The notes beneath the pieces were generated by a model. It worked only from the letters and a program-made list of their open reading frames with translations. It was not told the origin of the DNA and made no database searches. Shown piece by piece: positions 1 through 19,317 of a stretch of DNA of 24,000 nt. A program made the position numbers and the translations under genes. The DNA comes from Christensenellaceae bacterium. Lineage in GTDB: Bacteria > Bacillota > Clostridia > Christensenellales > Borkfalkiaceae. Position 1 is the first letter of the stretch; each line of letters starts with the position of its first letter. The stretch spans positions 38,486-62,485 of the forward strand of contig JAZLAE010000013.1 of assembly GCA_045613025.1 (NCBI GenBank). The letters are read 5' to 3'.

Positions 1-1
1 A

Positions 2-1597
2 GATGAAAACGGTAGGCTATCCGCTATCAACTTCAAAAACACCGAAACTTTCAACTTTGGTTTTGATATAGTTGATAAAATTGCCGAAAAATATCCAGAT
101 AAACTTGCAATGCTTCATCTTGATAAAAACAAAGTTGAACGCCGTTTTACCTTTAGGGATATCAAGCGTGCTTCTAACCAAGTGGCTAACTACTTTACTT
201 CGCTTGGCATCAAAAAAGGCGATAAAGTAATGCTTGTACTTAAACGCCATTACGAATTCTGGTTCTGTATGGTTGCCCTTCACAAACTTGGTGCGGTGGC
301 TATCCCTGCAACTAACCAACTTAAACAGCACGATTTTGAATACAGATATAACGCTGCGGGTGTAAAAGCAATCGTTTGTACGGCAGATGGCGATACTTAC
401 ACTTACGCTCAAAGCGCTGCTAAAAAATGCCCTCAAGTAGAAAAACTTTTAATGGTAGGTGGCGCTAAAGACGGTTGGCAAGATTTCAATAAAGAATATC
501 CGCTTTTCAGTGCTCACTTCTACCGCAATGAAGATACTTCTTGTGGTAACGATACTGCGCTTATGTTCTTTACTTCGGGTACAACTGGCAACCCTAAAAT
601 GGCTGCGCACAAACATACTTACGCGCTTGGTCATTTTGTAACCGCTAAGTACTGGCACTGTTGCGAACGCGACGGCTTACACTTAACTATTTCTGATACT
701 GGCTGGGGTAAATCACTTTGGGGTAAACTTTACGGTCAATGGCTTTGCGAAGGTGCGGTATTTGTTTACGACTTTGATAGGTTCGAAGAAAACGACATTT
801 TACCAATGTTTGCAAAATATAACATTACTACTTTCTGCGCTCCACCAACAATGCTCCGTATGCTTATTCGTGGCGACCTTTCTAAGTACGACCTTTCTTC
901 AATCCACCATATGACTACTGCTGGCGAAGCGTTAAACCCTGAAGTATTCAATAAATTTAAAGAAGCAACAGGCCTTGAAATTATGGAAGGTTTTGGCCAA
1001 ACCGAAACAACCCTTGCTATTGCTAACCTTTACGGCACTACACCAAAAATCGGTGCTATGGGTAAGGCAAATCCACAATACGACGTTGACGTAGTTGACC
1101 CAGATGGAAATAGTCTTCCTGCAGGTGAAGTTGGCGAAATCGTTATCCATACGGATAAAGCCGTTCCTTGCGGATTATTTAAAGAATATTATTGTGACGC
1201 TGAAAAAACTACCGATGCTTGGCACGATGGCTTATATCATACAGGCGATACCGCATGGCGCGATGAAGACGGATATTTCTGGTACGTTGGTAGGGTAGAC
1301 GACGTTATCAAGTCAAGTGGTTACCGTATCGGACCTTTCGAAATCGAATCGGTAATAATGGAACTACCTTACGTTTTAGAATGTGGTGTTTCTGCCGTTC
1401 CTGATGAAGTACGTGGCCAAGTAGTTAAAGCAAGCATCGTATTAACTAAAGGCACTGTAGGTTCTGAAGAATTAAAGAAAGAAATTCAACAATACGTTAA
1501 AGAACATACCGCTCCATACAAGTATCCAAGGGTAATCGTATTTAAAGACGAATTGCCAAAGACCATTAGCGGTAAAATCCAAAGAAACAAACTCTAA
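2..1597 (+). CDS. AMP-forming acyl-CoA synthetase, medium-chain (ACSM/MACS-like) family; 5' end cut by the window edge
   Basis: The frame is open from nt 2 (DENGRLSAINFKNTETFNFGFDIVDKIAEKYPDKLAMLHL...). This aligns with the region starting about residue 260 of the 2114..4402 paralog, so the Met at 110 in the ORF track is internal. Adenylate-forming motifs are present: FFTSGTTGNPK, TTAGEAL, GDTAWRDEDGYFWYVGRVDDVIKSSGYRIGPFEIES, PKTISGKIQR. Confidence 0.9.
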   Translation, partial: DENGRLSAINFKNTETFNFGFDIVDKIAEKYPDKLAMLHLDKNKVERRFTFRDIKRASNQVANYFTSLGIKKGDKVMLVLKRHYEFWFCMVALHKLGAVAIPATNQLKQHDFEYRYNAAGVKAIVCTADGDTYTYAQSAAKKCPQVEKLLMVGGAKDGWQDFNKEYPLFSAHFYRNEDTSCGNDTALMFFTSGTTGNPKMAAHKHTYALGHFVTAKYWHCCERDGLHLTISDTGWGKSLWGKLYGQWLCEGAVFVYDFDRFEENDILPMFAKYNITTFCAPPTMLRMLIRGDLSKYDLSSIHHMTTAGEALNPEVFNKFKEATGLEIMEGFGQTETTLAIANLYGTTPKIGAMGKANPQYDVDVVDPDGNSLPAGEVGEIVIHTDKAVPCGLFKEYYCDAEKTTDAWHDGLYHTGDTAWRDEDGYFWYVGRVDDVIKSSGYRIGPFEIESVIMELPYVLECGVSAVPDEVRGQVVKASIVLTKGTVGSEELKKEIQQYVKEHTAPYKYPRVIVFKDELPKTISGKIQRNKL

Positions 1598-1740: not shown

Positions 1741-1792
1741 TAGAATATTAAGTTTTTACTATATATAACTTTAAAATAAAAGATAAAAACGT

Positions 1793-1821
1793 TTGACACT
1801 TAATTAAAGGTGTGATAAAAT
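1793..1821 (+). promoter_or_regulatory. Sigma-A type promoter with extended -10
   Basis: TTGACA (1793-1798), 17-nt spacer, TGa (1813-1815), TAAAAT (1816-1821). It is correctly placed just upstream of the T-box leader. Confidence 0.7.
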
Positions 1822-1833
1822 ACTATAACAAAG

Positions 1834-2094: not shown

Positions 2095-2113
2095 GTTTCA
2101 AACGGAGGAAATT

Positions 2114-4402: not shown

Positions 4403-4530
4403 GCGTCGCAATACTGCGTTTACTGCTTCAAATTTTGACTTTGATGACCAACAAGGTCAATCAAATCCAAAATTTTCGCGAGCCTTGTCTTGCTTGCTTC
4501 TAACTCATTTCTTACATAAACAAATTATAA
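4403..4530 (+). repeat. Structured intergenic repeat, copy B
   Basis: Same layout as copy A: CTGCGTTTACTG, then stems TTTGAT (4440-4445)/ATCAAA (4460-4465) and GACC (4446-4449)/GGTC (4455-4458) around the loop AACAA. The outer stem is AAATTTTG/CAAAATTT, followed by the tail CGAGCCTTG. It ends with ...AAACAAATTATAA, which resembles the 3' end of the synthetase gene. Confidence 0.7.
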
Positions 4531-4655
4531 GCATCGTATTTCTGCGTTTACTGTAAAGTTTTTCGACCACGATAACCAAAAAGGTTTATCGTGTCCGTAA
4601 AACTTTCCGAGCCTTGCCTAACTTGTTTATAGTTCGTTTCTTAATCACACGAAAC
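4531..4655 (+). repeat. Structured intergenic repeat, copy C
   Basis: GCATCGTATTTCTGCGTTTACTG, then the outer stem AAAGTTTT/AAAACTTT, the mid stem CACGAT/ATCGTG and AACC/GGTT around the loop AAAAA, then CGAGCCTTGCCTAACTTGTTTATAGTTCGTTTCT. The stems differ in sequence from copies A and B but remain complementary. Confidence 0.7.
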
Positions 4656-4736
4656 AGGTAGGTCTATCTCAGCCTGTGGTCTACACGAGCCTTTCCTAAC
4701 TTGTTTCTAACTCATTTCTTACAGAAACAAACTAAA
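4656..4736 (+). repeat. Structured intergenic repeat, copy D (partial or degenerate)
   Basis: Keeps the tail CGAGCCTTTCCTAACTTGTTTCTAACTCATTTCTTACAGAAACAAACT, but its hairpin is different and shorter (CAGG...CCTG). The terminal AGAAACAAACT matches the last codons of the 2..1597 gene. Confidence 0.55.
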
Positions 4737-4782
4737 AGATAAAGTATGTTTGTTTTTAAAACTTATTAGTTTGAAATTTCTA

Positions 4783-4811
4783 TTGATAATCAATTTAAAG
4801 TCGATTACAAT
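4783..4811 (+). promoter_or_regulatory. Sigma-A type promoter for the NTPase/oxidoreductase/ilvE operon
   Basis: TTGATA (4783-4788), 17-nt spacer, TACAAT (4806-4811). Confidence 0.6.
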
Positions 4812-4849
4812 TAGATAAGGGGTTATTATATAAAGAAAACAACCACAGT

Positions 4850-4867
4850 TTACAAACTTGTTTGTAA
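4850..4867. promoter_or_regulatory. Perfect 8-bp inverted repeat, candidate operator
   Basis: TTACAAAC-TT-GTTTGTAA, about 40 nt downstream of the predicted -10. The 2-nt spacer is too short for an RNA hairpin loop, so a DNA operator is more likely. Confidence 0.45.
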
Positions 4868-4895
4868 CATCGTTAGTCGCAAGACTACACAGTTT

Positions 4896-4945
4896 TTGCG
4901 CTAGCAAAACACCGTTTGGCGCTAGCCAACTTTGGCAAAGCCAAA
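4896..4945 (+). promoter_or_regulatory. Three tandem short palindromes or hairpins with shared TTGSC/GSCAA arms in the operon leader
   Basis: TTGC-GCTA-GCAA (4896-4907), TTGGC-GCTA-GCCAA (4916-4929), TTTGGC-AAA-GCCAAA (4931-4945). They end 20 nt before the ATG at 4965. Confidence 0.45.
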
Positions 4946-4964
4946 ATATCGTTTAATAATAGTT

Positions 4965-5627
4965 ATGATAAACTTTAAAAGAATTACAATCTTATCAGGG
5001 CATTATGGTAGCGGAAAAACTAACGTTGCCGTAAACCTTGCCTTAGATTTAAAAAAGGTATATAATAAAGTTGCTATAGCGGATATCGACATAGTTAACC
5101 CTTACTTTAGAACCAAAGATAGCGAAGAACTATTGCAGTCTTTAGGCATAAAACTTATTTGTTCAGAGTACGCTAACTCTAACGTAGATATTCCTGCGCT
5201 TCCGCAAGAAATGTATAGCGTAACCGATGATAAGTCCGTACACGCCATACTTGACGTAGGCGGTGATGAACGCGGTGCTTTAGCGCTTGGCAGGTTAGTG
5301 CCTAAAATTAAAGAAGAAAACGATTACGATATGTTCTACGTAATAAATAAGTTTAGGCCGTTAACCCGTGATATTCCGTCGGCTATAGAAGTTTTTGATG
5401 AAATCGAAAACGCGTGCAAACTTAAATTTACGGGAATAATAAATAACTCAAACTTAGGCAAAGAAACTACCCCTGAAGACGTAATATCTTCAGTAGAAAT
5501 TGCCGAAAACTTAGCAAAAACTTTAAACTTACCACTTATTTTCACTTCGGTTACCGAAGAGTTGTATGGCAAAGTAAAAGATAAAATTCAAAACGTGTAT
5601 CCACTTGTGATGCAAAAAAAATTATAA
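4965..5627 (+). CDS. P-loop NTPase (MinD/ParA/CooC-like superfamily), function unknown
   Basis: A Walker A motif lies near the N-terminus (ILSGHYGSGKTNVAVNLA), and a DVGGDE segment resembles Walker B/switch. ATG 4965 is preferred over the TTG at 4932 because it puts the P-loop at the usual distance from the N-terminus. No clear SD is visible. Confidence 0.7.
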   Translation: MINFKRITILSGHYGSGKTNVAVNLALDLKKVYNKVAIADIDIVNPYFRTKDSEELLQSLGIKLICSEYANSNVDIPALPQEMYSVTDDKSVHAILDVGGDERGALALGRLVPKIKEENDYDMFYVINKFRPLTRDIPSAIEVFDEIENACKLKFTGIINNSNLGKETTPEDVISSVEIAENLAKTLNLPLIFTSVTEELYGKVKDKIQNVYPLVMQKKL

Positions 5628-5639
5628 AGGAGTATAGTT

Positions 5640-5846
5640 ATGGCTGTATTAACTTTTAAAACTGATAAATGTAAAGGCTGTGGCTTGTGCGTTGGCGTTT
5701 GCCCTAAAAACGTACTTGCTCTTGCAACAGACAAAATTAACGCAAAAGGTCATCACCCTGTTGAAGCGGTTAACCCTGAAGCGTGCATCGGTTGTGCTTT
5801 CTGTGCAACAATGTGTCCTGATTGTATAATAAAGGTAGAAAGATAG
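5640..5846 (+). CDS. 2x[4Fe-4S] ferredoxin-type delta subunit of 2-oxoacid:ferredoxin oxidoreductase
   Basis: Two cluster motifs, CKGCGLCVGVCP and CIGCAFCATMCP. AAGGAG RBS. 68 aa. Confidence 0.85.
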   Translation: MAVLTFKTDKCKGCGLCVGVCPKNVLALATDKINAKGHHPVEAVNPEACIGCAFCATMCPDCIIKVER

Positions 5847-5858
5847 GAGTATAAAATT

Positions 5859-6920
5859 ATGGCAGATAAAGTTTTAATGAAAGGCAATGAAGCAATTGCA
5901 GAAGCGGCTATCATTGCAGGTTGTAGACATTATTTCGGCTATCCTATTACGCCACAAACAGAAATCGCGGCGTATATGGCTAAAAAGATGCCAAAAATCG
6001 GCGGTACTTTCTTACAAGCAGAAAGTGAAGTTGCCGCTATCAATATGGTATACGGTGTAGCGTCAACCGGTTATAGGGTTATGACGTCGTCTTCAAGCCC
6101 TGGTATTTCGTTAAAGGGCGAAGGCTTATCTTACTTAGCGGGTGCTGATTTACCAGCGCTTGTTGTTAACGTACAAAGGGGCGGTCCTGGTCTTGGTGGT
6201 ATTCAACCATCACAATCAGACTATTTCCAAGCAACTAAGGGTGGCGCACACGGTGACTTCCGTATGTTAGTTTTAGCCCCTGCATCAGTTCAAGAAATGG
6301 CAGAACTTACAGTTAAAGGTTTTGACCTTGCCGATAAATACCGTATGACTACTATGATTTTAGCCGACGGTACTATGGGTCAAATGATGGAACCAGTTTC
6401 TTTAGATTTCAAGGTAGAACCTCCTGTTGAAAAACCTTGGGCGGCTACTGGTACTAATATGCAACGTAAGCACAACGTAATCAACTCTCTTTACTTAAAG
6501 CCTGACCAACTTGAAAAAACTAACTTTGAAAGATTTGAACGTTACGAAATTATCAAAGAAAACGAAGTTATGTACGAAGAATACTTAATTGATGACGCTG
6601 AAATCTGCGTTGTTGCATTTGGTATTGCATCAAGGGTTGCTAAAAACGCTATTAACGAAGCAAGAAGCCAAGGCATTAAAGTTGGGTTAATTAGACCTAT
6701 CACACTTTGGCCTTTCCCTGAAAAAATCATTAACAAGGTTGCAGATAAAGTTAAATCGTTTATCTCTGTAGAACTTTCTATGGGTCAAATGATTGAAGAT
6801 ATCCGTTTAGCAGTAAACGGCAAAGCACCTGTTACTTTGTGTAACCGTTCGGGCGGTATGATACCTTCACCTGAACAAGTTTTAGAAGCAATCAAAAACG
6901 CTAACGGAGGTAAAAACTAA
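5859..6920 (+). CDS. 2-oxoacid:ferredoxin oxidoreductase alpha subunit (VorB/KorA-like)
   Basis: The N-terminus LMKGNEAIAEAAIIAGCRHYFGYPITPQTEI is typical of the alpha subunits of this family. The size is about 350 aa, and the gene lies in the order delta-alpha-beta-gamma. Confidence 0.85.
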   Translation: MADKVLMKGNEAIAEAAIIAGCRHYFGYPITPQTEIAAYMAKKMPKIGGTFLQAESEVAAINMVYGVASTGYRVMTSSSSPGISLKGEGLSYLAGADLPALVVNVQRGGPGLGGIQPSQSDYFQATKGGAHGDFRMLVLAPASVQEMAELTVKGFDLADKYRMTTMILADGTMGQMMEPVSLDFKVEPPVEKPWAATGTNMQRKHNVINSLYLKPDQLEKTNFERFERYEIIKENEVMYEEYLIDDAEICVVAFGIASRVAKNAINEARSQGIKVGLIRPITLWPFPEKIINKVADKVKSFISVELSMGQMIEDIRLAVNGKAPVTLCNRSGGMIPSPEQVLEAIKNANGGKN

Positions 6921-7660
6921 TGGTAGTATTCGATAAACCAAAGTCACTTGTTGACGTTCCTTTACATTATTGCCCAGGTTGTACACACGGTATCGTTCAC
7001 CGTTTAGTTGCCGAAGTTATCGACGAACTTGGTATCGAAGGTAAAACTATCGGTATTGCACCCGTTGGTTGTGCGGTTATGGCTTACGATTATTTCGCTT
7101 GCGATATGATTGAAGCAGCGCACGGTAGAGCGCCTGCTGTTGCTACTGGTGTTAAGCGCGCGTTACCTGATAACGTAGTATTCACTTACCAAGGCGACGG
7201 CGACTTAGCGTCAATCGGTATGTCTGAAACAGTTCACTCTGCTGCAAGAAACGAAAACATCACTATTATCTTTATCAACAACGCAATTTACGGTATGACT
7301 GGTGGTCAAATGGCACCTACTTCTCTTCCTGGTCAAGTAACTCAAACTTCACCTTATGGTAGAGATACTAACCTTTGCGGTTTCCCTATCAAAGTTTGCG
7401 AAATGCTTTCACAACTTGACGGCCCTGAATATCTTGAAAGGGTAGCGGTTAACAACGTTAAAAATATCAAAAACGCTAAAAAAGCAATCAAGAAAGCCTT
7501 CCAAAACCAAATTGATAAAAAAGGTTTCTCTCTTGTAGAAGTTGTTTCAAGTTGCCCAACTAACTGGGGCTTAACTCCTGAAAAAGCATTACAATGGATT
7601 GATGAAAAAATGATACCTTACTATCCTTTAGGCGTATACAAGGATAGGTCGGCGAAATAA
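6920..7660 (+). CDS. 2-oxoacid:ferredoxin oxidoreductase beta subunit (TPP-binding)
   Basis: TPP motif GDGDLASIGMSETVHSAARNENITIIFINNAIYGMTGGQ, and an N-terminal CPGC cluster ligand region. The start shares one nucleotide with the upstream stop (TAATG). Confidence 0.85.
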   Translation: MVVFDKPKSLVDVPLHYCPGCTHGIVHRLVAEVIDELGIEGKTIGIAPVGCAVMAYDYFACDMIEAAHGRAPAVATGVKRALPDNVVFTYQGDGDLASIGMSETVHSAARNENITIIFINNAIYGMTGGQMAPTSLPGQVTQTSPYGRDTNLCGFPIKVCEMLSQLDGPEYLERVAVNNVKNIKNAKKAIKKAFQNQIDKKGFSLVEVVSSCPTNWGLTPEKALQWIDEKMIPYYPLGVYKDRSAK

Positions 7661-7673
7661 GGGGGCAATTAAA

Positions 7674-8210
7674 ATGAACGAAAAATATTTATTTGCCGGT
7701 TTCGGCGGTCAAGGTATATTATTCTCTGGTAAAGTTTTAGCGTATAAAGGTCTTACTGATGGCAAAAACGTAAGTTGGCTTCCATCATACGGCCCTGAAA
7801 TGCGTGGTGGTACTGCAAGTTGTAGCGTTATCGTAAGTGATAACCCTATCGGTTCACCTATCGTTTCTAATCCTGAAATTTTAATAGCAATGAACCTTCC
7901 ATCTCTTGATTTATACGAAGATAGAGTAACAAGTGGCGGTATGATTTTCGTTGACTCATCACTTGTTGATAGAAAGGTTAATAGAACTGACGTAAAAGCA
8001 TTTTATATCCCTGCAACAAAACTTGCATCGGATAACGGAATTCCAACCCTTGCAAATATGATTATTATGGGTAAGGTTTTAGCGGAAACTAACGGCTTTA
8101 ACGATGAAAACGGCGTAAGAAACGCTTTAACTAAAGTTATTTCAGCAAAGCGTGCCGATATGTTAGAAGTTAACCTTAACGCTATGAAGTTGGGTAGAGA
8201 CTTCAAATAA
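7674..8210 (+). CDS. 2-oxoacid:ferredoxin oxidoreductase gamma subunit
   Basis: [17 protein letters not shown]...[18 protein letters not shown] is typical of gamma subunits. GGGGG-type RBS. Confidence 0.85.
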
Positions 8211-8241
8211 GATTACGCTTTTGATTTAAAGGAGAATTATT

Positions 8242-9306
8242 ATGGAAATTAAAATCACTAAAACTACAAGTCCTGCGGTTAAACCAGACAGTAGTATTTT
8301 AGGTTTCGGTAAATACTTTACCGACCATATGTTTATAATGGATTATTCGGCTGACAAAGGTTGGCACGATGCAAGAATAGTACCGTTTGGTAGAATTGAT
8401 ATTCACCCAGCATCAACAGTACTTCACTACGGCTCTGAAATCTTTGAAGGTTTAAAAGCATATAGAACAAAAGATGGTAGCGTACAACTTTTCCGTCCGC
8501 TTGAAAACATTAGAAGAATGAACCGCTCAGCAGAACGTATGTGTTTACCTGAAATCCCTGAAGATATGGCACTTGAAGCGTTAACTACCTTTATCAAAAT
8601 GGAACAAGACTGGGTTCCATCTGCACCAGGTACTTCACTTTATATCCGTCCGTTTATGTTCGGTAACGATGAAACTTTAGGTGTTCACGCCGTTAAAAAC
8701 GCTAAATTTGTTATTATAACTTCACCTGTTGGTAGTTATTATAAAGAAGGCATTAACCCTGTTAAAATTATGATTGAATCTGAAGACGTACGTGCCGTTC
8801 GCGGTGGTACGGGCGAAGCAAAATGCGGTGGTAACTACGCTGCAAGTAATAGGGCAGGCGAAAGGGCAGAAAAGAAAGGTTACTCTCAAGTATTATGGCT
8901 TGACGGTGTTGAAAGAAAATACATCGAAGAAGTTGGCGCAATGAACGTTATGTTCAAAATCGCAGGCGAAATCGTTACGCCTAAACTTGCAGGTTCAATT
9001 CTTCCAGGTATTACAAGAAAATCTATCCTTGAACTTTTACAAAAAGAAGGTTATAAGGTTTCTGAAAGACTTATCTCTGTTGATGAACTTGCCGAAGCAA
9101 TGAAAAACGGCACGCTTGAAGAAGCATGGGGTTGCGGTACTGCAGCCGTTGTTTCACCTATCGGTGAACTTTGCTATCAAGACGTTAAATACTCTATCAA
9201 CAACGGTAAAATCGGCGAAGTTACTCAACACTTATACGATACTTTAACAGGTATTCAATGGGGTAATAAGGAAGATGTATTTAATTGGGTTTACCCAATT
9301 AAATAA
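8242..9306 (+). CDS. ilvE: Branched-chain amino acid aminotransferase (fold type IV)
   Basis: About 354 aa, with family-typical segments YGSEIFEGLKAYR, LYIRPFMFG, EAKCGGNYAAS, GITRKSILEL, GTAAVVSPI. AAAGGAG RBS. Confidence 0.85.
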   Translation: MEIKITKTTSPAVKPDSSILGFGKYFTDHMFIMDYSADKGWHDARIVPFGRIDIHPASTVLHYGSEIFEGLKAYRTKDGSVQLFRPLENIRRMNRSAERMCLPEIPEDMALEALTTFIKMEQDWVPSAPGTSLYIRPFMFGNDETLGVHAVKNAKFVIITSPVGSYYKEGINPVKIMIESEDVRAVRGGTGEAKCGGNYAASNRAGERAEKKGYSQVLWLDGVERKYIEEVGAMNVMFKIAGEIVTPKLAGSILPGITRKSILELLQKEGYKVSERLISVDELAEAMKNGTLEEAWGCGTAAVVSPIGELCYQDVKYSINNGKIGEVTQHLYDTLTGIQWGNKEDVFNWVYPIK

Positions 9307-9440
9307 GCCGTTATTTGCTGCGTCTATCTGCGTTTCTGCAAAGTGGTTTTGATTTCAATGACCAACAAGGTCTATTTCATCCAAAACCATTTGCGAGCCT
9401 TGATATACTTGCAACTAACGCCTTATTACGTACTTAATTT
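9307..9440 (+). repeat. Structured intergenic repeat, copy E
   Basis: Starts right after the ilvE stop: CTGCGTTTCTG, outer stem GCAAA(G)TGGTTTT (9338-9350)/AAAACCATTTGC (9383-9394), GACC-AACAA-GGTC core, then CGAGCCTTG... The mid stem is partly decayed. Confidence 0.65.
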
Positions 9441-9521: not shown

Positions 9522-9552
9522 AAGGCAGGTTGTTTTAAGACCTGCCTTTTTC
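9522..9552 (+). terminator. Intrinsic terminator (second; related sequence)
   Basis: AAGGCAGGT-TGTTTTAAG-ACCTGCCTT followed by TTTTT. Confidence 0.8.
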
Positions 9553-9554
9553 TT

Positions 9555-9600
9555 GAGCCTTGCCTAACTTGTAACTAACGCCTTATTACGTAAATTTAAT
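9555..9600 (+). repeat. Structured-repeat tail fragment, copy F
   Basis: GAGCCTTGCCTAACTTGTAACTAACGCCTTATTACGTA duplicates 9395-9432. It has only the tail and no hairpin. Confidence 0.6.
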
Positions 9601-9616
9601 AAGCAAATATTTATTT

Positions 9617-9653
9617 TAGCGTATCAGCATAACGTTGATACGCTATTATTTTT
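9617..9653 (+). terminator. Hairpin with U-rich tail (third terminator-like element)
   Basis: TAGCGTATCA (9617-9626), loop GCATAACGT, TGATACGCTA (9636-9645), then TTATTTTT. Confidence 0.6.
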
Positions 9654-9684: not shown

Positions 9685-9713
9685 TTGACAAAGTTATAAA
9701 ATAGTGTTAATAT
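9685..9713 (+). promoter_or_regulatory. Sigma-A type promoter with extended -10
   Basis: TTGACA (9685-9690), 17-nt spacer, TGt (9705-9707), TAATAT (9708-9713). Same architecture as the promoter at 1793. Confidence 0.7.
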
Positions 9714-9726
9714 ACTTAAAAATAAA

Positions 9727-9989
9727 CGCGATGAAGCGAAATAGTAAGTAAATTTTCTTGCTTTTAGAGAGATGCTGGTTGGTGCAAGGCGTTAGAAGAA
9801 TTTTACCGAACTCGTCGCAGAGCGGTTGCCGTGAAAGGTTAGTAGTGGCAAACGGGAACTCCCGTAAAAGAGTTAGGTGTGTTTGCACCAAAGTGCGCTT
9901 TCTTAAGCGAATAAGAGTGGTACCGCGGAAATAGTTTATCCTAAACGTTTTCGTCTCTTTAAGAAGTAAGGAGACAAAAGCGTTTTTTT
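9727..9989 (+). promoter_or_regulatory. T-box leader, specifier CUC (Leu)
   Basis: GA motif GCGAUGAAGCGAA (9728-9740); AG bay AGAGAG (9766-9771); distal loop GGUUGGUGCAA (9777-9787). The specifier loop 3' side is GAA-CUC-G (9808-9814), directly 5' of UCGC (9815-9818), which pairs with GCGA (9736-9739). The T-box sequence is AAUAAGAGUGGUACCGCGG (9911-9929), followed by a terminator. The UGGU bulge is compatible with A73 of tRNA-Leu. Confidence 0.88.
9946..9989 (+). terminator. Intrinsic terminator of the T-box 2 expression platform
   Basis: CGTTTTCGTCTC (9946-9957) pairs with GAGACAAAAGCG (9971-9982), followed by TTTTTTT (9983-9989). CGGAAA (9925-9930) can pair with TTTTCG (9948-9953) as the antiterminator. 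Confidence 0.8.
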
Positions 9990-10023
9990 ATTTCTATTAC
10001 CACAAAATTAAAGGAGATTTATT

Positions 10024-11409
10024 ATGAAAAAAATCGATATTATTGACGTTACGCTTAAAAAACTCTCAGAAGAACGCGAAGTTGCGCTTTTATTCCGTGA
10101 AAAATCTGCTATTGCTACAAAAGCCGATTTATTAGGTGCTGACGTTATTGAACTTCCTGCAGTTAAAAACTTCCGTGAAGATGCAATTATCTATAAAACT
10201 ATTTCTCAAAACGTTCAAAACGCTATTTTAACAATCCCTGTTGGCTTTGATAAAGAAAGCGTTGCTAACGCTTGGGAATGTGTTAAATTTGCTAAAAAAC
10301 CACGCTTACAAATCGAACTTCCAGTGTCTACTATTCAAATGGAATATACTTACCACGTTAAGCAAGAAAAAATGCTTGATAAAATTGTTGCGCTTATTAA
10401 AGAAGCAAAAAATTATTGTGAAGACGTAGAGTTTTCTGCGCTTGATGCAACAAGGGCTGACGTTAATTTCTTATTAACTGCAGTTAAAACTGCTGAAGAA
10501 AACGGCGCTACCGTTATTAACGTTTGTGATAACGCGGGCAACTCAACCCCTGAAGAAATCGCTTCGCTTGTTGAAAAAATTAAAGGCGTTGTTTCTATTC
10601 CACTTTACGTTCAAGTATCTAATCGCGTATTTATGGGCGTTGCTTCGGCTTTTTCTGCTATCACTAAAGGCGCAGACGGTTTAAAATGCGCTATTGATGG
10701 TAAAGACGTTCTTATTACTGGCGAAATTTGTGATGCCGTTTCAGTTTGCGGTGCAACTATCGGTGCAAAAATCAATCTTAACACTACTAAAATTCACGCA
10801 AGCATCGAAGATGTCCTTTCTAAAATCAATCATAAAGACTTATCCGCTACAAGCATAAGTGATAAAAACAAAATTTTACTTGACAGCGACGCTACTTTAA
10901 AAGACGTATTAACTTCTGCTACCGCACTTGGCTATGACCTTACTGAGTCTGATGCGGGTAAAGTATTTAATGCGCTTGTTAAGGTTTGTGAGAAAAAAGG
11001 TGCTATCGGTTCAAAGGAATTTGAAGCGCTTATTGCAAGTAACGCAATGCAAGCACCATCTACTTACCACTTTGAAACTTACACAACAACAAGCAGTAAC
11101 GTTTCAACTTCTATGTCGCAAGTAACTTTAAAAAGAAACGGAGAAATCATCTCTGGCGTTAGTTCGGGCGACGGTCCTATCGACTCTGTTTTCCGTGCTA
11201 TAGAACAATGTATCGGTCACCACTACGAACTTGATGATTACCAAGTTCAATCGGTAACCGAAGGTAAAGAAGCGTTAGGTTCAGCGCTTGTAAGACTTCG
11301 CAACAACGGCAAACTTTATTCTGGTAACGGTACTTCAACCGATATCGTTGGTGCAAGTATTAGGGCGTATATTAACGCGCTTAATAAAATCGTAGCCGAG
11401 GAGGCGTAA
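10024..11409 (+). CDS. LeuA/HMGL-like protein with degenerate catalytic motifs and an intact LeuA C-terminal regulatory (dimerisation) domain
   Basis: AAGGAGA RBS. The fold-level resemblance to 2-isopropylmalate synthase is clear: IDIIDVTL..., VEFSALDATR, INVCDNAGNSTPEE, KGADGLKCAIDG. The C-terminal part, GDGPIDSVFRAIEQ...YQVQSVTEGKEALGSALVRL...GNGTSTDIVGASIRAYINALNKI, is a typical LeuA_dimer domain. However, DTTLRDGEQ is replaced by DVTLKKLSE, the HxH metal site by QVS, and no HESGIHQDG-like motif is seen. Confidence 0.75.
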   Translation: MKKIDIIDVTLKKLSEEREVALLFREKSAIATKADLLGADVIELPAVKNFREDAIIYKTISQNVQNAILTIPVGFDKESVANAWECVKFAKKPRLQIELPVSTIQMEYTYHVKQEKMLDKIVALIKEAKNYCEDVEFSALDATRADVNFLLTAVKTAEENGATVINVCDNAGNSTPEEIASLVEKIKGVVSIPLYVQVSNRVFMGVASAFSAITKGADGLKCAIDGKDVLITGEICDAVSVCGATIGAKINLNTTKIHASIEDVLSKINHKDLSATSISDKNKILLDSDATLKDVLTSATALGYDLTESDAGKVFNALVKVCEKKGAIGSKEFEALIASNAMQAPSTYHFETYTTTSSNVSTSMSQVTLKRNGEIISGVSSGDGPIDSVFRAIEQCIGHHYELDDYQVQSVTEGKEALGSALVRLRNNGKLYSGNGTSTDIVGASIRAYINALNKIVAEEA

Positions 11410-11410
11410 T

Positions 11411-13873
11411 ATGAAAATAGTATTTTCAACCAAAAACGTAATAAGGGCGTCATTTTTAGATGCTTGTGCTTACGCTTACGATTACGGTTTTGAAGGCTTT
11501 GAAATATACGATGCGGTAAAAGAAAGAATCGACCATTACGACAGTATTTTAAGGCGTGATAAAGTTGCCGATAGCAAGCGAAAACTTGTAAACAGGGGTC
11601 TTTCTGTTTCGGCACTTCGTATGCCTGACGTTATCGAAAGTCAAAACGTTACTAAAGAATTAGTAGAAAAATACGTTGAAATGGCAAGTTTAGCGGGTGT
11701 TTCAAACGTTATCGTTAGCATAAATGATAAAGTTTCGTTTGATATTTTAAACGAAAAACTTACCCCTGCAGTAAAACTTGCTGAAAGGTTAGACGTAAAT
11801 ATCTTATTTGAAACTATAGGTTACCTTTCTAATACTGAAAACGTTATAGAAATTATCAACTATTTCTCATCGGCGGTAATAGGTGCTTCTTGGAACGTAA
11901 GGGGTACTTACTTCGGCGCAAAAGAATCGGCAGAGTCTACCATTAAAACGCTTGGCGCGTATATCAAATACGTGCGCCTTGGCGATATGAAAGGTGATAA
12001 AACCGTGCTTATCGGCGAAGGTGATTTAGACGTAGAAAAACTTTTAAACGCACTTTCTTCACTCAACTACGACGGCTTTATTTGTTGTGCTTGGAACGAA
12101 GAAATTAACGATGCCGATATAGTACTCACTCACTTTGCAAACTACGTTTCTTCGCTTAACCGCGATAAGAAAACTAATACCGAAAAATATTACAATAGGG
12201 ATAAATCGGGTTCTTTCGTATGGAAAAAATACGACGTTATCGATGCAACTTTCTCACAAGTTTTAGATACGATGGTAGAAAACTATCCCGACCAATACGC
12301 TTTTAAATACCCTACTTTAGACTATACGCGCACTTACGAACAATTCCGTCGCGACGTTGACGAATGCGCCGCAGCGCTTATTTCTCTTGGCGTAAAAGCG
12401 GGCGACCACGTTGCCGTTTGGGCAACTAACGTGCCTGAGTGGTTTATTACTTTCTGGGCAACTACTAAAATCGGTGCGGTACTTGTTACAGTTAACACGG
12501 CTTATAAAATTCACGAAATCGAATACTTACTTAAACAATCGGATACTCACACCCTTGTTATGATTGAGTATTGCAAAGATATCAACTATAAAGAAATTAT
12601 CGAAGAACTTTGCCCTGAACTTAAAACTTTGGAAGCGGGCAAACCTTTATATTCTAAATCGTTACCGTTCCTTAGAAACGTTGTAACCGTTGGCTTTAAT
12701 ATGGACGGCTGTTTAACTTGGGAACAAATGTTATCGCGTTCTTCACTTATTCCTATTGAAGAAGTAAGGCGTCGTGCATCACTTGTTAAACCGGACGACG
12801 TTTGCAATATGCAATACACTTCAGGTACAACGGGTTTCCCTAAAGGCGTTATGCTTACACACCGCAATATCGTAAACAACGGTAAAACTATCGGTGACAG
12901 AATGGATTTATCTACTGCCGACCGTATGATGATTCAAGTACCTATGTTCCACTGTTTTGGTATGGTGCTTTCAATGACTTCTATGATGACTCACGGTGGT
13001 ACGCTTTGTCCTATTCCGTACTTCTCACCAAAATCATCACTTGCTTGCGTAAACGATGAAAGAATCACTTGCTTTAACGGTGTTCCTACAATGTTTATTG
13101 CAATGTTCAACCACCCTGATTTTTCTAAAACTGACTTTAGTTATATGCGTACGGGTATTATGGCGGGTGCTAACTGTCCTGCCGACTTAATGCGCCGTGC
13201 ATCAGTTGAAATGAACATGCGCGAAATCATTTCAGTTTACGGTCAAACGGAAGCCGCACCTGGCTGTACAATGGGCGAAGTTAATGAAGACTTAGACCAT
13301 AGGGTAGAAACTGTAGGTAGTGCTTTCCCTGGTGTTGAATGTAAGATAATCGACCCTGAAACAGGTAAAGAACTCCCTGACGGCGAAAGCGGTGAATTCG
13401 TTGCGCGTGGCTTTAATATTATGAAAGGCTACTACAAAATGCCTGAAGCAACTGCACAAGCCATTGATAAAGACGGTTGGCTTCACTCTGGCGATATTTG
13501 TATGAGAACGCCTGACGGTTACTATAAAGTAACTGGTAGGCTTAAAGATATGATTATCCGTGGTGGCGAAAACCTTTATCCGCGTGAAATTGAAGAATTC
13601 TATTTAACTAACCCAAAAGTTAGGGATATTCAAGTAGTTGGCGTGCCTGATGAAAGATACGGCGAAGAATGTTGCGCTTGGATTATTCTTCATAAAGGCG
13701 AAACTGCCGATGAAAACGAAATGCGCGAATACGGTAACGCGTCTATTGCAAGGCATAAAGTTCCAAGATATTTCGTGTTCGTTAATGAATTCCCTATGAA
13801 CGCTGCGGGCAAAATTTTAAAATACAAAATGCGTGAAAGTTCTATTGAAATGTTAGGACTTAAAAAGGCTTAA
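11411..13873 (+). CDS. Fusion protein: xylose-isomerase-like (AP endonuclease 2 family) TIM barrel + FadD-type AMP-forming acyl-CoA ligase
   Basis: A GAGGAGG RBS lies inside the end of the upstream gene, and the ATG is 1 nt after its stop. The N-terminal ~250 aa has TIM-barrel family segments (GFEGFEIYD, LAGVSNVIV, LAERLDVNILFETIG, YIKYVRLGD). From about residue 270 it is a complete adenylate-forming ligase (MQYTSGTTGFPKGVMLTH, YGQTEA, GWLHSGDICMRTPDGYYKVTGRLKDMIIRGGENLYPREIEE, NAAGKILK). Confidence 0.8.
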   Translation: MKIVFSTKNVIRASFLDACAYAYDYGFEGFEIYDAVKERIDHYDSILRRDKVADSKRKLVNRGLSVSALRMPDVIESQNVTKELVEKYVEMASLAGVSNVIVSINDKVSFDILNEKLTPAVKLAERLDVNILFETIGYLSNTENVIEIINYFSSAVIGASWNVRGTYFGAKESAESTIKTLGAYIKYVRLGDMKGDKTVLIGEGDLDVEKLLNALSSLNYDGFICCAWNEEINDADIVLTHFANYVSSLNRDKKTNTEKYYNRDKSGSFVWKKYDVIDATFSQVLDTMVENYPDQYAFKYPTLDYTRTYEQFRRDVDECAAALISLGVKAGDHVAVWATNVPEWFITFWATTKIGAVLVTVNTAYKIHEIEYLLKQSDTHTLVMIEYCKDINYKEIIEELCPELKTLEAGKPLYSKSLPFLRNVVTVGFNMDGCLTWEQMLSRSSLIPIEEVRRRASLVKPDDVCNMQYTSGTTGFPKGVMLTHRNIVNNGKTIGDRMDLSTADRMMIQVPMFHCFGMVLSMTSMMTHGGTLCPIPYFSPKSSLACVNDERITCFNGVPTMFIAMFNHPDFSKTDFSYMRTGIMAGANCPADLMRRASVEMNMREIISVYGQTEAAPGCTMGEVNEDLDHRVETVGSAFPGVECKIIDPETGKELPDGESGEFVARGFNIMKGYYKMPEATAQAIDKDGWLHSGDICMRTPDGYYKVTGRLKDMIIRGGENLYPREIEEFYLTNPKVRDIQVVGVPDERYGEECCAWIILHKGETADENEMREYGNASIARHKVPRYFVFVNEFPMNAAGKILKYKMRESSIEMLGLKKA

Positions 13874-13881
13874 AGGTTAAA

Positions 13882-14041
13882 GGCTCTGTCACAATAAACG
13901 GTTAATAAATAGCAAATGAAATACTGCGTAATACGTTGTTAAAGCCCTTGAAAAGATGTATACTCTTATCTACGGGCTTTGCCTAGTCTTACTTGCATTT
14001 GCTTTGCTATTTTAAAATCAACCTAATATTGTGACATCGCC
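13882..14041. repeat. Nested long palindrome enclosing a diverged copy (G) of the intergenic repeat
   Basis: Outer arms GGCTCTGTCACAATA (13882-13896)/TATTGTGACATCGCC (14027-14041), with a perfect 10-bp core. Middle arms AGCAAATG (13911-13918)/CATTTGCT (13996-14003). Inner arms AAAGCCC (13941-13947)/GGGCTTT (13974-13980). AATACTGCGT and GGGCTTTGCCTAGTCTTACTTG resemble copy B/C flanks. Confidence 0.65.
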
Positions 14042-14055
14042 ATAGGAAAATTATT

Positions 14056-14862
14056 ATGATAAATGGAAAATACTACGCGATAGACGCGCATTGCCATATC
14101 TATCCCGAAAAAATCGCCAAACTTGCCGTTGACCATACAGATAATTTTTATAGCGAACACTCATATAACAAAGGCACGCTTGAAGATTTAATTTCGGCAA
14201 GTGATATCGCGGGTGTTGATAAATGTATTATTCAATCGGTGGCAACAACGCCTAAACAAGTTCAAAGCATAAACAAATTTATTAGCGATAGCGTGCAAGC
14301 GCACGGGGATAGATTTGTTGGCTTAGGCACTATCCATCCACGCTCTTTAGATATTGAAGGGGATATAGAACATTTAATAGAACTTGGCTTAAAGGGTATA
14401 AAAATCCACCCTGATATTCAAAACTTCAAGGTGGACGACGACGGCTATAAACAAGCGTATAAAATTTGCGAAAAGAAAGGCTTACCCGTTTTAATGCACA
14501 CGGGGGATAATAGATACGATAATTCTAATCCAAATAGAATTATACCTATATTAAATGAGTTTAAAAATTTAATGGTAGTAGGCGCACACTTTGGCGGTTG
14601 GTCTATTTGGGAAGAAGCAAGTGAAAAGTATAAAAACTACGATAACTTTTTCGTGGATACTTCTTCAAGTTTACACTACATCGATTTAGATACGGCTAAA
14701 ATGATAGTTGATAACTACGGCGTTGATAAACTTATGTTTGCAACAGATTACCCTATGTGGAACGCAAAAGACGAAATCGAAACCATTTTAAAACTTAACT
14801 TAACTGAAGACGATTACATTAAAATCTTTTCTAAAAACGCCGAAAAGGTGTACAAAATATAA
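14056..14862 (+). CDS. Amidohydrolase-2 family TIM-barrel metal-dependent hydrolase
   Basis: N-terminal HxH (IDAHCHIYPE), later His/Asp ligand candidates (KIHPD, LMHTGD, GAHFGG, FATDYP). AGGA RBS. 268 aa. Confidence 0.75.
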   Translation: MINGKYYAIDAHCHIYPEKIAKLAVDHTDNFYSEHSYNKGTLEDLISASDIAGVDKCIIQSVATTPKQVQSINKFISDSVQAHGDRFVGLGTIHPRSLDIEGDIEHLIELGLKGIKIHPDIQNFKVDDDGYKQAYKICEKKGLPVLMHTGDNRYDNSNPNRIIPILNEFKNLMVVGAHFGGWSIWEEASEKYKNYDNFFVDTSSSLHYIDLDTAKMIVDNYGVDKLMFATDYPMWNAKDEIETILKLNLTEDDYIKIFSKNAEKVYKI

Positions 14863-16439: not shown

Positions 16440-17456
16440 ATGATTATAGTAGTTAAACAACAACACGAAGAGAAACAACTTGATAATTTAATCAAATGGA
16501 TTAAAAACTTGGGTTTAGAGGTCGATTTAAGCCGTGGTTCGCACTCAACCATATTAGGTTTAATTGGCGATACAAGTAAGGTGGATATCGACCTTATCCG
16601 TTCGCTTGATATCGTTGAAAACGTTAAGCGTATTCAAGAACCCTTTAAATGTGCTAATCGTAAATTCCATCCAGACGATACTATCGTGGAAGTTGGCGAC
16701 GCTAAGTTTGGTGGAGACAATTTCTCTATCATAGCAGGGCCTTGTTCGATTGAAACTGAAAGCCAAATCATAGAAGTTGCTTGGGCTGTAAAAAATGCAG
16801 GCGCTAAAGTGCTTCGCGGTGGCGCGTTTAAACCAAGAACTTCGCCGTACTCTTTCCAAGGTTTAAAAAGTAAGGGTTTAGACCTTTTACTTAAAGCCAA
16901 ACAAGAAACGGGTATGCCTATCGTTACCGAAATTATGAGTTCATCTCACCTTGATTTGTTTAGTGACGTTGATATCATCCAAATCGGCGCAAGAAATATG
17001 CAAAACTTCGAACTTTTAAAAGAAGTAGGCAAAACTAAAAAACCTGTTCTTTTAAAACGTGGTCTTTGCAGTACTATTGAAGAATGGCTTATGAGTGCCG
17101 AATACTTAATGAGCGAAGGTACTAAAGATATTATCTTATGCGAACGCGGTATTCGTACTTTTGAAACGTATACAAGAAACACTTTAGATTTATCCGCTAT
17201 CCCGCTTATAAAAGAGTTAACGCATTTACCCGTTGTAGTAGACCCGTCGCACGCGTCTGGTCTTTCAAGGCTTGTAAAACCGTTATCGCTTGCATCGGTT
17301 GGCTCTGGTGCAGACGGACTTATGATAGAAGTGCACAACAATCCGCAATGCGCACTTTGTGACGGCGCGCAATCACTTAAACCCGATGAGTTTAGCGACG
17401 TGGTTAAAAAAGTTAACGTGATGTTGCCACTTTGCAACAAGAAAGAGATATTATGA
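16440..17456 (+). CDS. aroF: 3-deoxy-7-phosphoheptulonate (DAHP) synthase, type I-beta, with an N-terminal ferredoxin-like regulatory domain
   Basis: 338 aa. About 75 N-terminal residues (IIVVKQQHEE...LGLIGDTS...) precede the catalytic barrel (IIAGPCSIE, LRGGAFKPRTSPYSFQG, KRG, VDPSH). AAGGAGA RBS. Confidence 0.88.
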   Translation: MIIVVKQQHEEKQLDNLIKWIKNLGLEVDLSRGSHSTILGLIGDTSKVDIDLIRSLDIVENVKRIQEPFKCANRKFHPDDTIVEVGDAKFGGDNFSIIAGPCSIETESQIIEVAWAVKNAGAKVLRGGAFKPRTSPYSFQGLKSKGLDLLLKAKQETGMPIVTEIMSSSHLDLFSDVDIIQIGARNMQNFELLKEVGKTKKPVLLKRGLCSTIEEWLMSAEYLMSEGTKDIILCERGIRTFETYTRNTLDLSAIPLIKELTHLPVVVDPSHASGLSRLVKPLSLASVGSGADGLMIEVHNNPQCALCDGAQSLKPDEFSDVVKKVNVMLPLCNKKEIL

Positions 17457-18310
17457 ATATAGGTTTAATAGGTCTTGGACTTATCGGTGGTTCTTTTGGT
17501 AGAACTTTAATTAAAAAAACAAACCATAAAATTTACGGTTACGACATAAGTGAAACAGTTATGTTAAAGGCGGAAATGCTTAACGCTTTTAACGAAAAAT
17601 TAACGATTGATAACGCTAAAGATTTAGATATGCTTATTATTTCCGTTTACCCTGATTATTTTGAAGACGCGGTAAAAAAATTCTTACCACATCTTAAAAA
17701 AGGGACTATCGTTACCGATTTTTCGGGCGTGAAAGGAATTATTATTGATAAGATGAAAAATTATCAAAAACAGTTCCCTGACCTAATTTTTATAGGTGGT
17801 CACCCTATGGCGGGTAGGGAATTTTCGGGTATAGAACACTCTATAACCACGTTATTTGATAAAGCGTTTATGATTTTAGTTCCGATAAACGCGGATATCT
17901 TTACCCTTAGCGAAATCAAAAATTTCTATAAGGAACTTGGCTTTTTAGACGTAGTTATAACTACCGCTGAAAATCACGATGAAATGATAGCGTACACTTC
18001 GCAACTTTGCCATATAGTATCAAACGCCTTTATAAAAAACGAAACGGCAGAAAAACACCTTGGCTATTCTGCAGGAAGTTATAAAGACTTAACAAGGGTT
18101 GCAAGGCTTAATAGTGAAATGTGGTCTGGGCTTATGATGGCAAATAAGGCTAAACTTAAAAAAGAACTTGATGAGTTTATTTTAAACTTGCAAAAATATT
18201 CAACCGCCCTTGAAAATGGCAGTAGGGAAGAATTAGAACTTTTGCTTAAAGAAGGCAATGATAGAAAACTTTCAATCGACGTAAGGAGTAGTAAAAACAA
18301 TGGAAATTAA
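17453..18310 (+). CDS. tyrA: Prephenate dehydrogenase
   Basis: MNIGLIGLGLIGGSFG Rossmann motif at the N-terminus, and GGHPMAG. ATG 17453 overlaps the aroF stop (ATGA). The TTG at 17432 in the ORF track is rejected. Confidence 0.85.
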   Translation: MNIGLIGLGLIGGSFGRTLIKKTNHKIYGYDISETVMLKAEMLNAFNEKLTIDNAKDLDMLIISVYPDYFEDAVKKFLPHLKKGTIVTDFSGVKGIIIDKMKNYQKQFPDLIFIGGHPMAGREFSGIEHSITTLFDKAFMILVPINADIFTLSEIKNFYKELGFLDVVITTAENHDEMIAYTSQLCHIVSNAFIKNETAEKHLGYSAGSYKDLTRVARLNSEMWSGLMMANKAKLKKELDEFILNLQKYSTALENGSREELELLLKEGNDRKLSIDVRSSKNNGN

Positions 18311-19316: not shown

Positions 19317-19317
19317 A

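Follow-up and report, generated by a model that had tools for sequence, protein, structure and literature searches.

Can a protein that has lost an enzyme's active site live on as a sensor of the pathway's end product? The question is raised by a gene in a 24,000-nt stretch of DNA from a Christensenellaceae bacterium (GCA_045613025.1, contig JAZLAE010000013.1, positions 38,486–62,485 of the forward strand), which we call the window and number from its first nucleotide. The gene resembles leuA, which encodes 2-isopropylmalate synthase, and it is followed by a gene for an acyl-CoA ligase. An initial annotation had proposed that its product has lost catalysis, has kept ligand sensing and dimerisation and acts as a regulatory subunit. 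Our analysis indicates that the LeuA-like protein is almost certainly not an isopropylmalate synthase. That it is a non-catalytic, leucine-sensing regulatory subunit of an isovalerate-CoA ligase, in a pathway from branched-chain fatty acids to branched-chain amino acids, is a proposal to which we give about even chances.

The LeuA-like protein lacks the catalytic residues of LeuA

Is the protein a LeuA at all? The Pfam domain HMGL-like (PF00682) matched residues 4–226 (E 1.5e-30), and LeuA_dimer (PF08502) matched residues 330–456 (E 7.7e-32, 110.4 bits) over profile positions 4–130 of 131. The top NCBIfam equivalog was the bacterial-type LeuA model, for which the protein scored 258.9 bits, under half of the cut-off of 532. 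The protein remained under the cut-off of every LeuA, CimA, NifV and LysS model, and the scores for CimA, NifV and LysS were far lower than those for LeuA.

We aligned the protein residue by residue with the solved LeuA barrels 3rmj, 3ewb and 3eeg and with three canonical LeuAs, and every substitution that the initial annotation had listed among the N-terminal signature residues was seen. The canonical DTTLRDGEQ reads DVTLKKLSE, and the change and the loss of the catalytic Arg stand as first described; the assignment of the neighbouring residues has to be refined. In the DRE-TIM superfamily, the metal-ligand Asp is the residue after the Arg, so that the RD pair at the end of strand 1 has become KK, while the first Asp of the motif survives as D8. 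The segment EFSAEDAxR reads EFSALDATR, in which the catalytic Glu of EDA is replaced by Leu; this is the acidic residue that had been called lost. HCHNDLG has become QVSNRVF, so the HxH metal site of strand 7 is QxS, and HxH occurs at this strand in 0 of the 107 members of a family alignment, in agreement with the claim that the site is missing. NGxGERAGNA reads DGKDV----L, an alteration already noted, to which we add that the loop is four residues shorter. Furthermore, the accessory block NKxxVGxNxFxHESGIHQDG...TYEI, which holds the catalytic His/Tyr motif of subdomain I, is deleted, and the alignment with the canonical LeuAs shows a gap of ~35 residues where the HESGIHQDG-like motif had been reported absent. 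In the isopropylmalate synthase of Mycobacterium tuberculosis (MtIPMS), R80K alone, a conservative change, destroys activity (PMC10464499).

An AlphaFold2 model of the protein, built on 97 family sequences, had a mean predicted local distance difference test (pLDDT) score of 90.5, with values below 50 only at residues 271–279. In Foldseek superpositions, the model barrel fitted the LeuA N-domains 3ewb, 3eeg and 3rmj at 1.7–1.9 Å over ~276 columns, and the whole chain superposed on the M. tuberculosis LeuA. Of the six tests that define the LeuA enzyme, the protein passes two (the barrel fold and the LeuA_dimer domain) and fails four. Although a LeuA relative by descent, the gene should not be annotated as leuA.

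Could it nevertheless be a divergent isopropylmalate or citramalate synthase whose active site sits in a shifted register, or else a decaying pseudogene? The significant HMGL-like and LeuA NCBIfam matches would fit a synthase, as would the name '2-isopropylmalate synthase' that one member carries in IMG, in a family otherwise entered in databases as 'hypothetical protein'; against this, the protein falls far short of the cut-off of every equivalog model for LeuA, CimA and NifV, and we consider this explanation extremely improbable. A shifted register, which the initial annotation had named among the findings that would overturn it, is ruled out by the superposition, which leaves no alternative register, by the lack of HxH in all 107 aligned members and by the deletion of the accessory block. 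A CimA-type identity was likewise rejected (the score for TIGR00977 was no higher than 63 bits, and the C-terminal part is matched best by LeuA), and a decaying pseudogene is ruled out by the presence of the gene in 317 species and two phyla with a ratio of nonsynonymous to synonymous substitution rates (dN/dS) well below 1. The alignments, the family alignment and the superposition thus confirm that the entire LeuA catalytic apparatus is lost, as had been suspected.

Constraint has moved from the barrel to the regulatory domain

How widespread is this protein, and which part of it does selection preserve? Relatives of the gene were present in 317 stretches when one genome per species was scanned, and the locus counts and dN values reported here were drawn from the best 80 of these (71–88% identity). 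All 80 are from gut or rumen metagenome-assembled genomes (MAGs) of Christensenellaceae, Acutalibacteraceae, Oscillospiraceae and unclassified Clostridia. Among 50%-identity representatives, which were searched exhaustively, ~110 further clusters (453–497 aa, 28–51% identity) ranked before the true LeuAs of ~500–516 aa; the LeuA-like protein is itself ~50 residues shorter than LeuA. One sub-cluster comes from Thermoguttaceae (Planctomycetota), and the family therefore spans two phyla.

In the 107-member alignment, the RD pair is absent from every member, as is HxH, and the loop deletion is found in nearly all. The RD-equivalent and the other positions that replace metal ligands vary across the alignment, and the family has a signature of its own (xxDxTL, TRA(E/D)xxFL, TxCDTAG and xCS(D/N)xL). 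The same alignment also contained some proteins of LeuA length (~500–516 aa) that are partly degenerate (P0253, P0268, P0270 and P0242), with, for example, DTTLCDGEQ together with IRAYNDLG or DSTLCEGERS together with HSQNDLG; these may be intermediates or may represent independent catalytic erosion in the LeuA family.

Compared with the 80 orthologs, the median dN was 0.20 for the barrel, 0.34 for the linker and 0.069 for the regulatory domain of the LeuA-like protein, and 0.18 for the TIM domain and 0.052 for the ligase domain of its partner. The barrel thus changes at 3–4 times the rate of the ligase and of the regulatory domain. The dN/dS values were at most 0.14–0.18 (at most 0.14 for the barrel), and these figures are upper bounds only because synonymous sites are saturated. 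The gene is clearly maintained under purifying selection, and the family is not a decaying one.

This pattern of constraint is the reverse of that in real LeuA, in that the regulatory domain and not the barrel is best conserved. In a comparison of only five family and three canonical sequences, the identity of the regulatory domain was 51% within the family versus 39% among canonical LeuAs, and that of the barrel was 33% versus 52%. Of the 51 positions conserved in at least 90% of the family, 31 fall in the regulatory domain. LeuA_dimer was matched in all of the 97 family members, and the regulatory domain aligned with that of real LeuA without gaps at 32–37% identity. The earlier statement that the LeuA regulatory domain is preserved is therefore well founded, given the full-length PF08502 match, the gap-free alignment and the lowest dN within the protein.

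A candidate leucine site

Does the regulatory domain still bind an amino acid? In MtIPMS, the carboxylate of leucine is held between two helix N-termini of the regulatory domain (PMC11057210), and the PF08502 domain of CimA, separated from its enzyme, has served as a sensor of isoleucine that works autonomously (PMC13381585). In the LeuA-like protein, conserved glycine-rich caps precede the model helices 385–397 and 441–460, and the regulatory positions conserved at 90% or more include G382, G384, P385, D387, G434, G436, S438, T439 and D440. Because these helix-cap positions are conserved and match the carboxylate site of MtIPMS, and because a PF08502 domain can work autonomously, the amino-acid site looks intact. 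This assignment is based on the published description of the MtIPMS site and on conservation; a phmmer search of the PDB with the regulatory domain alone gave no meaningful match. The ligand would be a branched-chain amino acid, most likely leucine.

A leucine T-box precedes the operon

The initial annotation had placed the gene under a Leu T-box, and the Rfam match upstream of it exceeds the gathering score and carries the specifier CUC (Table 1). The specifier loop reads GAA-CUC-G, and the conserved T-box sequence AGAGUGGUACCGCG is present. Eight more Rfam-verified loci have a T-box with the CUC specifier (L002, L012, L014, L015, L047, L063, L074 and L087), including the 47%-identity lineage L087, so that all verified cases agree, and CTC occupies the aligned position in ~66 of 72 orthologous leaders. 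At its 3' end, the T-box match extends into the 5' arm of the probable terminator. Two terminator-like hairpins (9522–9548 and 9617–9645) lie between ilvE and the promoter, and the LeuA-like operon is, for this reason, a transcription unit separate from ilvE.

The spacers of this region also hold repeats. A 38-nt direct repeat (87% identity) occurs at 9395–9432 and 9555–9592 between ilvE and the T-box, each copy adjoining a terminator-like hairpin, and nested inverted repeats occupy 13882–14041 between the genes for the ligase and the Amidohydro_2 protein. Both sets of repeats may represent small repetitive elements of intergenic DNA.

The gene is paired with a TIM-domain/acyl-CoA ligase fusion

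With which protein would a non-catalytic LeuA relative work? Only 1 nt separates its stop codon (11407–11409) from the ATG of the fusion gene at 11411, and the Shine-Dalgarno sequence of the latter lies within the last codons of the LeuA-like gene. A complete fusion reading frame is found 4–10 nt downstream of the LeuA-like gene in 66 of the 80 loci; in 8 the fusion is cut by the contig end and in 5 there is too little downstream DNA, so that the partner is present at 74 of 75 informative loci. The fusion also adjoins relatives at 47% (L087), 41% (L081), 34% (L084), 34% (L082) and 29% (L083) identity, as well as that in L086, and in distant relatives the two genes usually overlap by 4 nt. A Thermoguttaceae contig has the pair alone, with no VorB-type oxidoreductase nearby. 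The claim of translational coupling to the ligase is borne out by the 1-nt spacing and the internal Shine-Dalgarno sequence, and the arrangement is kept across phyla.

The NCBIfam match of the ligase is of the PRK12583 type, at 671 bits and thus below the cut-off of 832. The identity of the ligase domain is 91–97% in the close set and 58–70% in distant lineages, with synonymous sites saturated, and that of the TIM domain falls to 27–29% in the distant lineages. Within loci L001–L080, the ligase domain (12218–13870) is far more conserved than the flanking domains (70–88%), a degree of conservation that is unusually strong for an ANL ligase.

The TIM domain, the only part of the fusion that was modelled (pLDDT 91.8), resembles ketose 3-epimerases and UlaE in fold, with template modelling scores of 0.7–0.77, and a homolog search with this domain matched only fragments of the same fusion family. 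Its metal motifs ETxG, WDLHH, HVHxxD and xEW are kept in the distant loci L081, L084 and L086 (for example, in Thermoguttaceae). In the window, these motifs read ETIG, WNVRG, YVRLGD and CAWN, with three of the four metal ligands lost, and the TIM domain of L087 likewise lacks three of the four. As judged from these motifs, the ligase of the window organism is accompanied by two degenerate barrels, the LeuA-like one and the TIM domain.

Might the LeuA-like protein only hold the ligase together? As a scaffold or a stability or assembly factor, it could join the ligase dimer or dock the ligase to the oxidoreductase for channelling of isovaleryl-CoA, and it would either not respond to leucine or sense isovalerate or 2-oxoisocaproate. 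The strict gene pairing and the translational coupling are compatible with such a role; LeuA_dimer is, as its Pfam name says, also a dimerisation domain, HMGL-like barrels do form channelling complexes (DmpG/DmpF, 1nvm, is among the fold matches of the model), and the barrel and the TIM domain evolve at similar and correlated rates. On the other hand, the strongest constraint is on the helix N-cap loops that form the carboxylate site of LeuA and not on a surface patch, the Thermoguttaceae pair indicates that channelling to the oxidoreductase is not obligatory, and leucine is the effector to be expected behind a Leu T-box. We therefore consider the scaffold explanation unlikely.

Several observations weigh against a leucine-sensing subunit of the ligase and have to be set beside those in its favour. 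One of the 80 loci (L055, 9944–11389) is an orphan LeuA-like paralog without a ligase, although the same MAG has a normal pair (L058). Because a fusion of the LeuA-like protein with the ligase was seen in none of the top 150 representative clusters, the argument for physical association is one of gene order only. Weak support comes from the barrel and the TIM domain, both of which evolve 3–4 times faster than the ligase and whose distances correlate (r 0.79; partial r 0.66 after controlling for the ligase); the correlation is compatible with contact, not diagnostic of it, and confounded by shared phylogeny. The best NCBIfam match of the ligase is a generic subfamily, under its cut-off, and only the genomic context points to its substrate. 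The pocket could also take isovalerate, 2-oxoisocaproate or another amino acid, among which the sequence does not distinguish. In real LeuA, the allosteric signal passes through subdomain I, and since this subdomain is deleted, the LeuA-like protein would have to signal by a different mechanism. Finally, polar residues of the old active-site face (D8, T10, S102, D141, R144 and D169) are at least 90% conserved, so that the barrel might still bind a ligand or carry out some residual chemistry.

Could these residues belong to a new active site? A neo-functionalised barrel, alone or with the TIM domain and the Amidohydro_2 protein, would catalyse a new, metal-independent reaction on an intermediate derived from isovalerate or leucine. 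Conservation at the C-terminal face of the barrel reaches the same level at E107, Y108 and K113, the barrel is under purifying selection, and the TIM domain has a full metal site in basal lineages. The gene for the Amidohydro_2 protein follows the ligase gene in most complete loci, often as the third gene of the operon (45–83% identity); this apparently intact metal-dependent enzyme retains its N-terminal HxH, and its nearest solved relatives are the uncharacterised 3irs and decarboxylases of the LigW/ACMSD type. However, the conserved polar residues of the barrel are all framework or second-shell residues inherited from LeuA, with no family-specific catalytic constellation seen, and the sites of the former metal ligands vary across the family. 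Moreover, the fast change of the barrel in comparison with the ligase and the regulatory domain is unlike that of an active site under selection, and the metal site of the TIM domain is dispensable in the lineage of the window. A new enzyme is thus improbable, and a leucine-sensing regulatory subunit remains the explanation that we pursue below.

The neighbouring genes suggest isovalerate-to-leucine assimilation

Which acid would the ligase activate? In the rumen, leucine is known to arise from isovalerate by carboxylation and subsequent amination (PMC7356843), and the window encodes three ANL ligases, a VorB-type oxidoreductase and IlvE together. The oxidoreductase genes carry the Pfam domains POR_N, TPP_enzyme_C and POR, and the oxidoreductase and IlvE are also linked to the LeuA-like module in L084 and L087. 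For each of the other two ligases, MbcS is the top NCBIfam match. One of them lies behind a Val T-box whose specifier is also found in the L014 ortholog, and orthologs of the other, cut at the window edge, sit behind an AUC (Ile) T-box (L012 and L074). MbcS activates isobutyrate and 2-methylbutyrate, and isovalerate poorly (PMC10026030). Its preferred substrates are the precursors of isoleucine and valine, which matches the Ile and Val T-boxes on the MbcS-like ligases. Because MbcS handles isovalerate poorly and a ligase of a different type sits behind the Leu T-box, isovalerate would need that different ligase. It is therefore probable that the LeuA-like module belongs to isovalerate-to-leucine assimilation.

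Could leucine sensed by this protein act not on the co-translated ligase but on another target, for example a transporter, IlvE or the ferredoxin oxidoreductase? Feedback on the carboxylation step would also be sensible, and many genomes have the oxidoreductase and ilvE genes linked to the module. Yet these two enzymes are common to all three branched-chain branches and are often unlinked or absent nearby, whereas the TIM-ligase is invariably adjacent and coupled. We rate a different target as quite improbable and the co-translated ligase as the better candidate.

The region 1–9306 of the window is part of a cluster with three T-boxes, on the Ile (AUC), Val (GUA) and Leu (CUC) ligases, together with the four-subunit VorB-type oxidoreductase and IlvE. 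The same three-T-box cluster occurs in L002, L014, L015, L016, L047, L063, L074, L078, L079 and L087, and it looks like a complete, tRNA-sensed system that converts isoacids into branched-chain amino acids.

Other features of the window are recorded here as well. The MbcS-like ligases have an unusual architecture, with N-terminal helix-turn-helix (HTH; HTH_3, XRE-type) and cupin domains, which suggests built-in ligand or DNA sensing. In many loci, the gene directly before that of the oxidoreductase delta subunit encodes a conserved P-loop protein (231 aa; 4932–5627), which has weak CbiA/ParA/NUBPL-like matches and no NCBIfam family and may be an iron-sulfur maturation or assembly factor. Downstream, at 16440–23969, lie aromatic amino-acid genes, including those for a 3-deoxy-D-arabinoheptulosonate 7-phosphate synthase with a ferredoxin-like domain, prephenate dehydrogenase and 3-dehydroquinate synthase, and further reading frames. 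Because these genes are present, the organism makes aromatic amino acids de novo; the branched-chain ones are apparently salvaged.

Table 1. Features of the window around the LeuA-like gene.
Feature	Position	Strand	Size or evidence
Second HTH-cupin-MbcS-like ligase, 3' part, cut at window edge	2..1597	+	open frame 2 from base 2; matches L014 fusion; MbcS 441 bits
T-box, GUA (Val) specifier	1828-2069	+	Rfam 105.7 bits; same GUA in L014 ortholog
HTH-cupin-MbcS-like acyl-CoA ligase fusion behind Val T-box	2111-4402	+	NCBIfam MbcS 443 bits, cut-off 850
2-Oxoacid:ferredoxin oxidoreductase delta subunit (ferredoxin)	5640-5846	+	context
2-Oxoacid:ferredoxin oxidoreductase alpha subunit/VorB	5859-6920	+	NCBIfam VorB 548 bits, cut-off 399
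2-Oxoacid:ferredoxin oxidoreductase beta subunit	6920-7660	+	context
2-Oxoacid:ferredoxin oxidoreductase gamma subunit	7674-8210	+	context
Branched-chain aminotransferase IlvE	8242-9306	+	NCBIfam IlvE 492 bits, cut-off 307
Sigma-70-like promoter (TTGACA, 17 nt spacer, TG-TAATAT)	9685..9713	+	consensus scan, 10/12 matches, extended -10 TG
T-box leader, Rfam RF00230	9722..9961	+	134.9 bits, gathering score 93
Leu T-box specifier CUC	9811-9813	+	followed by purine G at 9814
Probable T-box terminator hairpin (AAACGTTTTCGTCTC ... GAGACAAAAGCGTTT), then T-run	9944..9992	+	sequence read
LeuA-like open reading frame	10024-11409	+	461 aa
LeuA-like residues 1-226, degenerate DRE-TIM (HMGL-like) barrel	10024..10701	+	Pfam, LeuA alignments, model superposition, dN
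LeuA-like residues 227-330, shortened accessory region; subdomain I deleted, subdomain II helices (LGYDL...) kept	10702..11013	+	alignment, model
LeuA-like regulatory part; GDGPID (382-387) and GNGTSTD (434-440) cap two helix N-termini	11014..11409	+	PF08502, conservation, model
Shine-Dalgarno GAGGAGG for ligase, inside last codons (EEA) of LeuA-like gene	11398..11404	+	sequence read
Partner fusion gene	11411-13873	+	820 aa
Partner N-terminal xylose-isomerase-like TIM barrel, residues 1-255	11411..12175	+	Pfam AP_endonuc_2 E 2.4e-13; model
Partner linker and AMP-forming acyl-CoA ligase domain, putative isovalerate-CoA ligase	12176..13873	+	Pfam AMP-binding 5e-95 and AMP-binding_C
Amidohydro_2 protein	14056..14862	+	Pfam PF04909 6.7e-31

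Proposed mechanism

How might the parts work together? We propose that the LeuA-like protein is a pseudoenzyme in which the DRE-TIM barrel would survive as a structural or docking module, while the dimeric allosteric domain derived from LeuA would still bind a branched-chain amino acid, most likely leucine. Translational coupling would fix its stoichiometry with the TIM-ligase, of which it would be the leucine-responsive regulatory subunit. The TIM-ligase would activate isovalerate to isovaleryl-CoA, from which reductive carboxylation by the VorB-type oxidoreductase would yield 2-oxoisocaproate; transamination of the latter by IlvE would then give leucine. Control would be exerted at two levels. 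At the first, the Leu T-box would turn the operon on when tRNA-Leu is uncharged. At the second, rising free leucine would cause the LeuA-derived sensor to stop the ATP-consuming ligase step, much as leucine feedback inhibits LeuA. In this scheme, we infer the binding of leucine, the complex of the LeuA-like protein with the ligase, the direction of the regulation and the isovalerate substrate.

A wider version of the proposal, which we advance tentatively and at somewhat less than even chances, is that a pseudoenzyme derived from LeuA serves a previously unrecognised isovalerate-CoA ligase as its leucine-sensing allosteric subunit and docks to it via the two degenerate TIM barrels. Together with the Leu, Val and Ile T-boxes, it would govern a dedicated cluster with which abundant anaerobes of the gut and the rumen make leucine, valine and isoleucine alike from branched short-chain fatty acids of their environment.

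If true, this would be, as far as our literature search shows, the first regulatory pseudoenzyme from the DRE-TIM metallolyase superfamily and a clean example of the conversion of an enzyme into a stand-alone metabolite sensor. A large family that is now labelled hypothetical or mis-called 2-isopropylmalate synthase would gain a function, and the classical 'isoacid requirement' of rumen bacteria would gain a genetic and regulatory basis. The proposal also offers a testable gene set for a process long observed in anaerobic ecosystems of the gut, the conversion of isovalerate, isobutyrate and 2-methylbutyrate to leucine, valine and isoleucine, with relevance to isoacid feed supplements and to the colonic fate of branched-chain fatty acids. 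In reconstructions from gut and rumen MAGs, the LeuA-like gene must not be counted as leuA. Furthermore, the regulatory domain, which is small, highly conserved and, by its sequence, naturally detached from catalysis, would be a candidate part for leucine biosensors.

Comparison with known systems

Has anything of this kind been described before? Our literature search found no description of a LeuA pseudoenzyme, of a DRE-TIM-derived regulatory pseudoenzyme or of this pairing with a ligase, and nothing specific on T-box, VorB-type oxidoreductase or ligase clusters of this kind. The parts can, nevertheless, be compared with several known systems.

With LeuA itself (TIGR00973/PRK00915), the LeuA-like protein shares the DRE-TIM barrel, the helices of subdomain II, the LeuA_dimer domain and the GDGPID and GxGxSTDI motifs of the regulatory domain, and both are tied to leucine supply and leucine-responsive control. 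It differs from LeuA in lacking the Arg/Asp pair, the catalytic Glu, HxH, the full GERAGN loop and subdomain I, and in being encoded with an acyl-CoA ligase and not with leuBCD.

MbcS of Staphylococcus aureus (PMC10026030) and the rumen isoacid route resemble the system in that dedicated AMP-forming ligases activate short branched-chain acids. The partner of the LeuA-like protein is, however, of the PRK12583-like type, and MbcS feeds fatty-acid synthesis and has no T-box, pseudoenzyme partner or N-terminal sensor-like domains.

The ACT subunit of acetohydroxyacid synthase, IlvH/IlvN, is likewise a small, separate subunit; on binding a branched-chain amino acid, it feedback-inhibits the first enzyme of a branched-chain amino-acid route, and its regulatory module can be used as an autonomous sensor (PMC13381585). 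On the other hand, it has the ACT fold, does not originate from an enzyme barrel and serves another catalytic partner.

A parallel is also offered by histidine synthesis. There, an inactive histidyl-tRNA synthetase paralog, HisZ, is the histidine-sensing regulatory subunit of the short-form ATP phosphoribosyltransferase HisG. The fold and ancestry of HisZ are unrelated to those of the LeuA-like protein, the partner of the latter is an ANL ligase with an extra degenerate TIM domain, and the complex and allostery of HisZ and HisG have been shown experimentally, whereas their LeuA-like/ligase counterpart is a predicted one. The likeness lies in the design: in each case, a paralog of an enzyme from the same amino-acid system has lost catalysis, would have kept the capacity to bind an amino acid and is encoded together with the first enzyme of the pathway, on which it is proposed to exert feedback by the end product.

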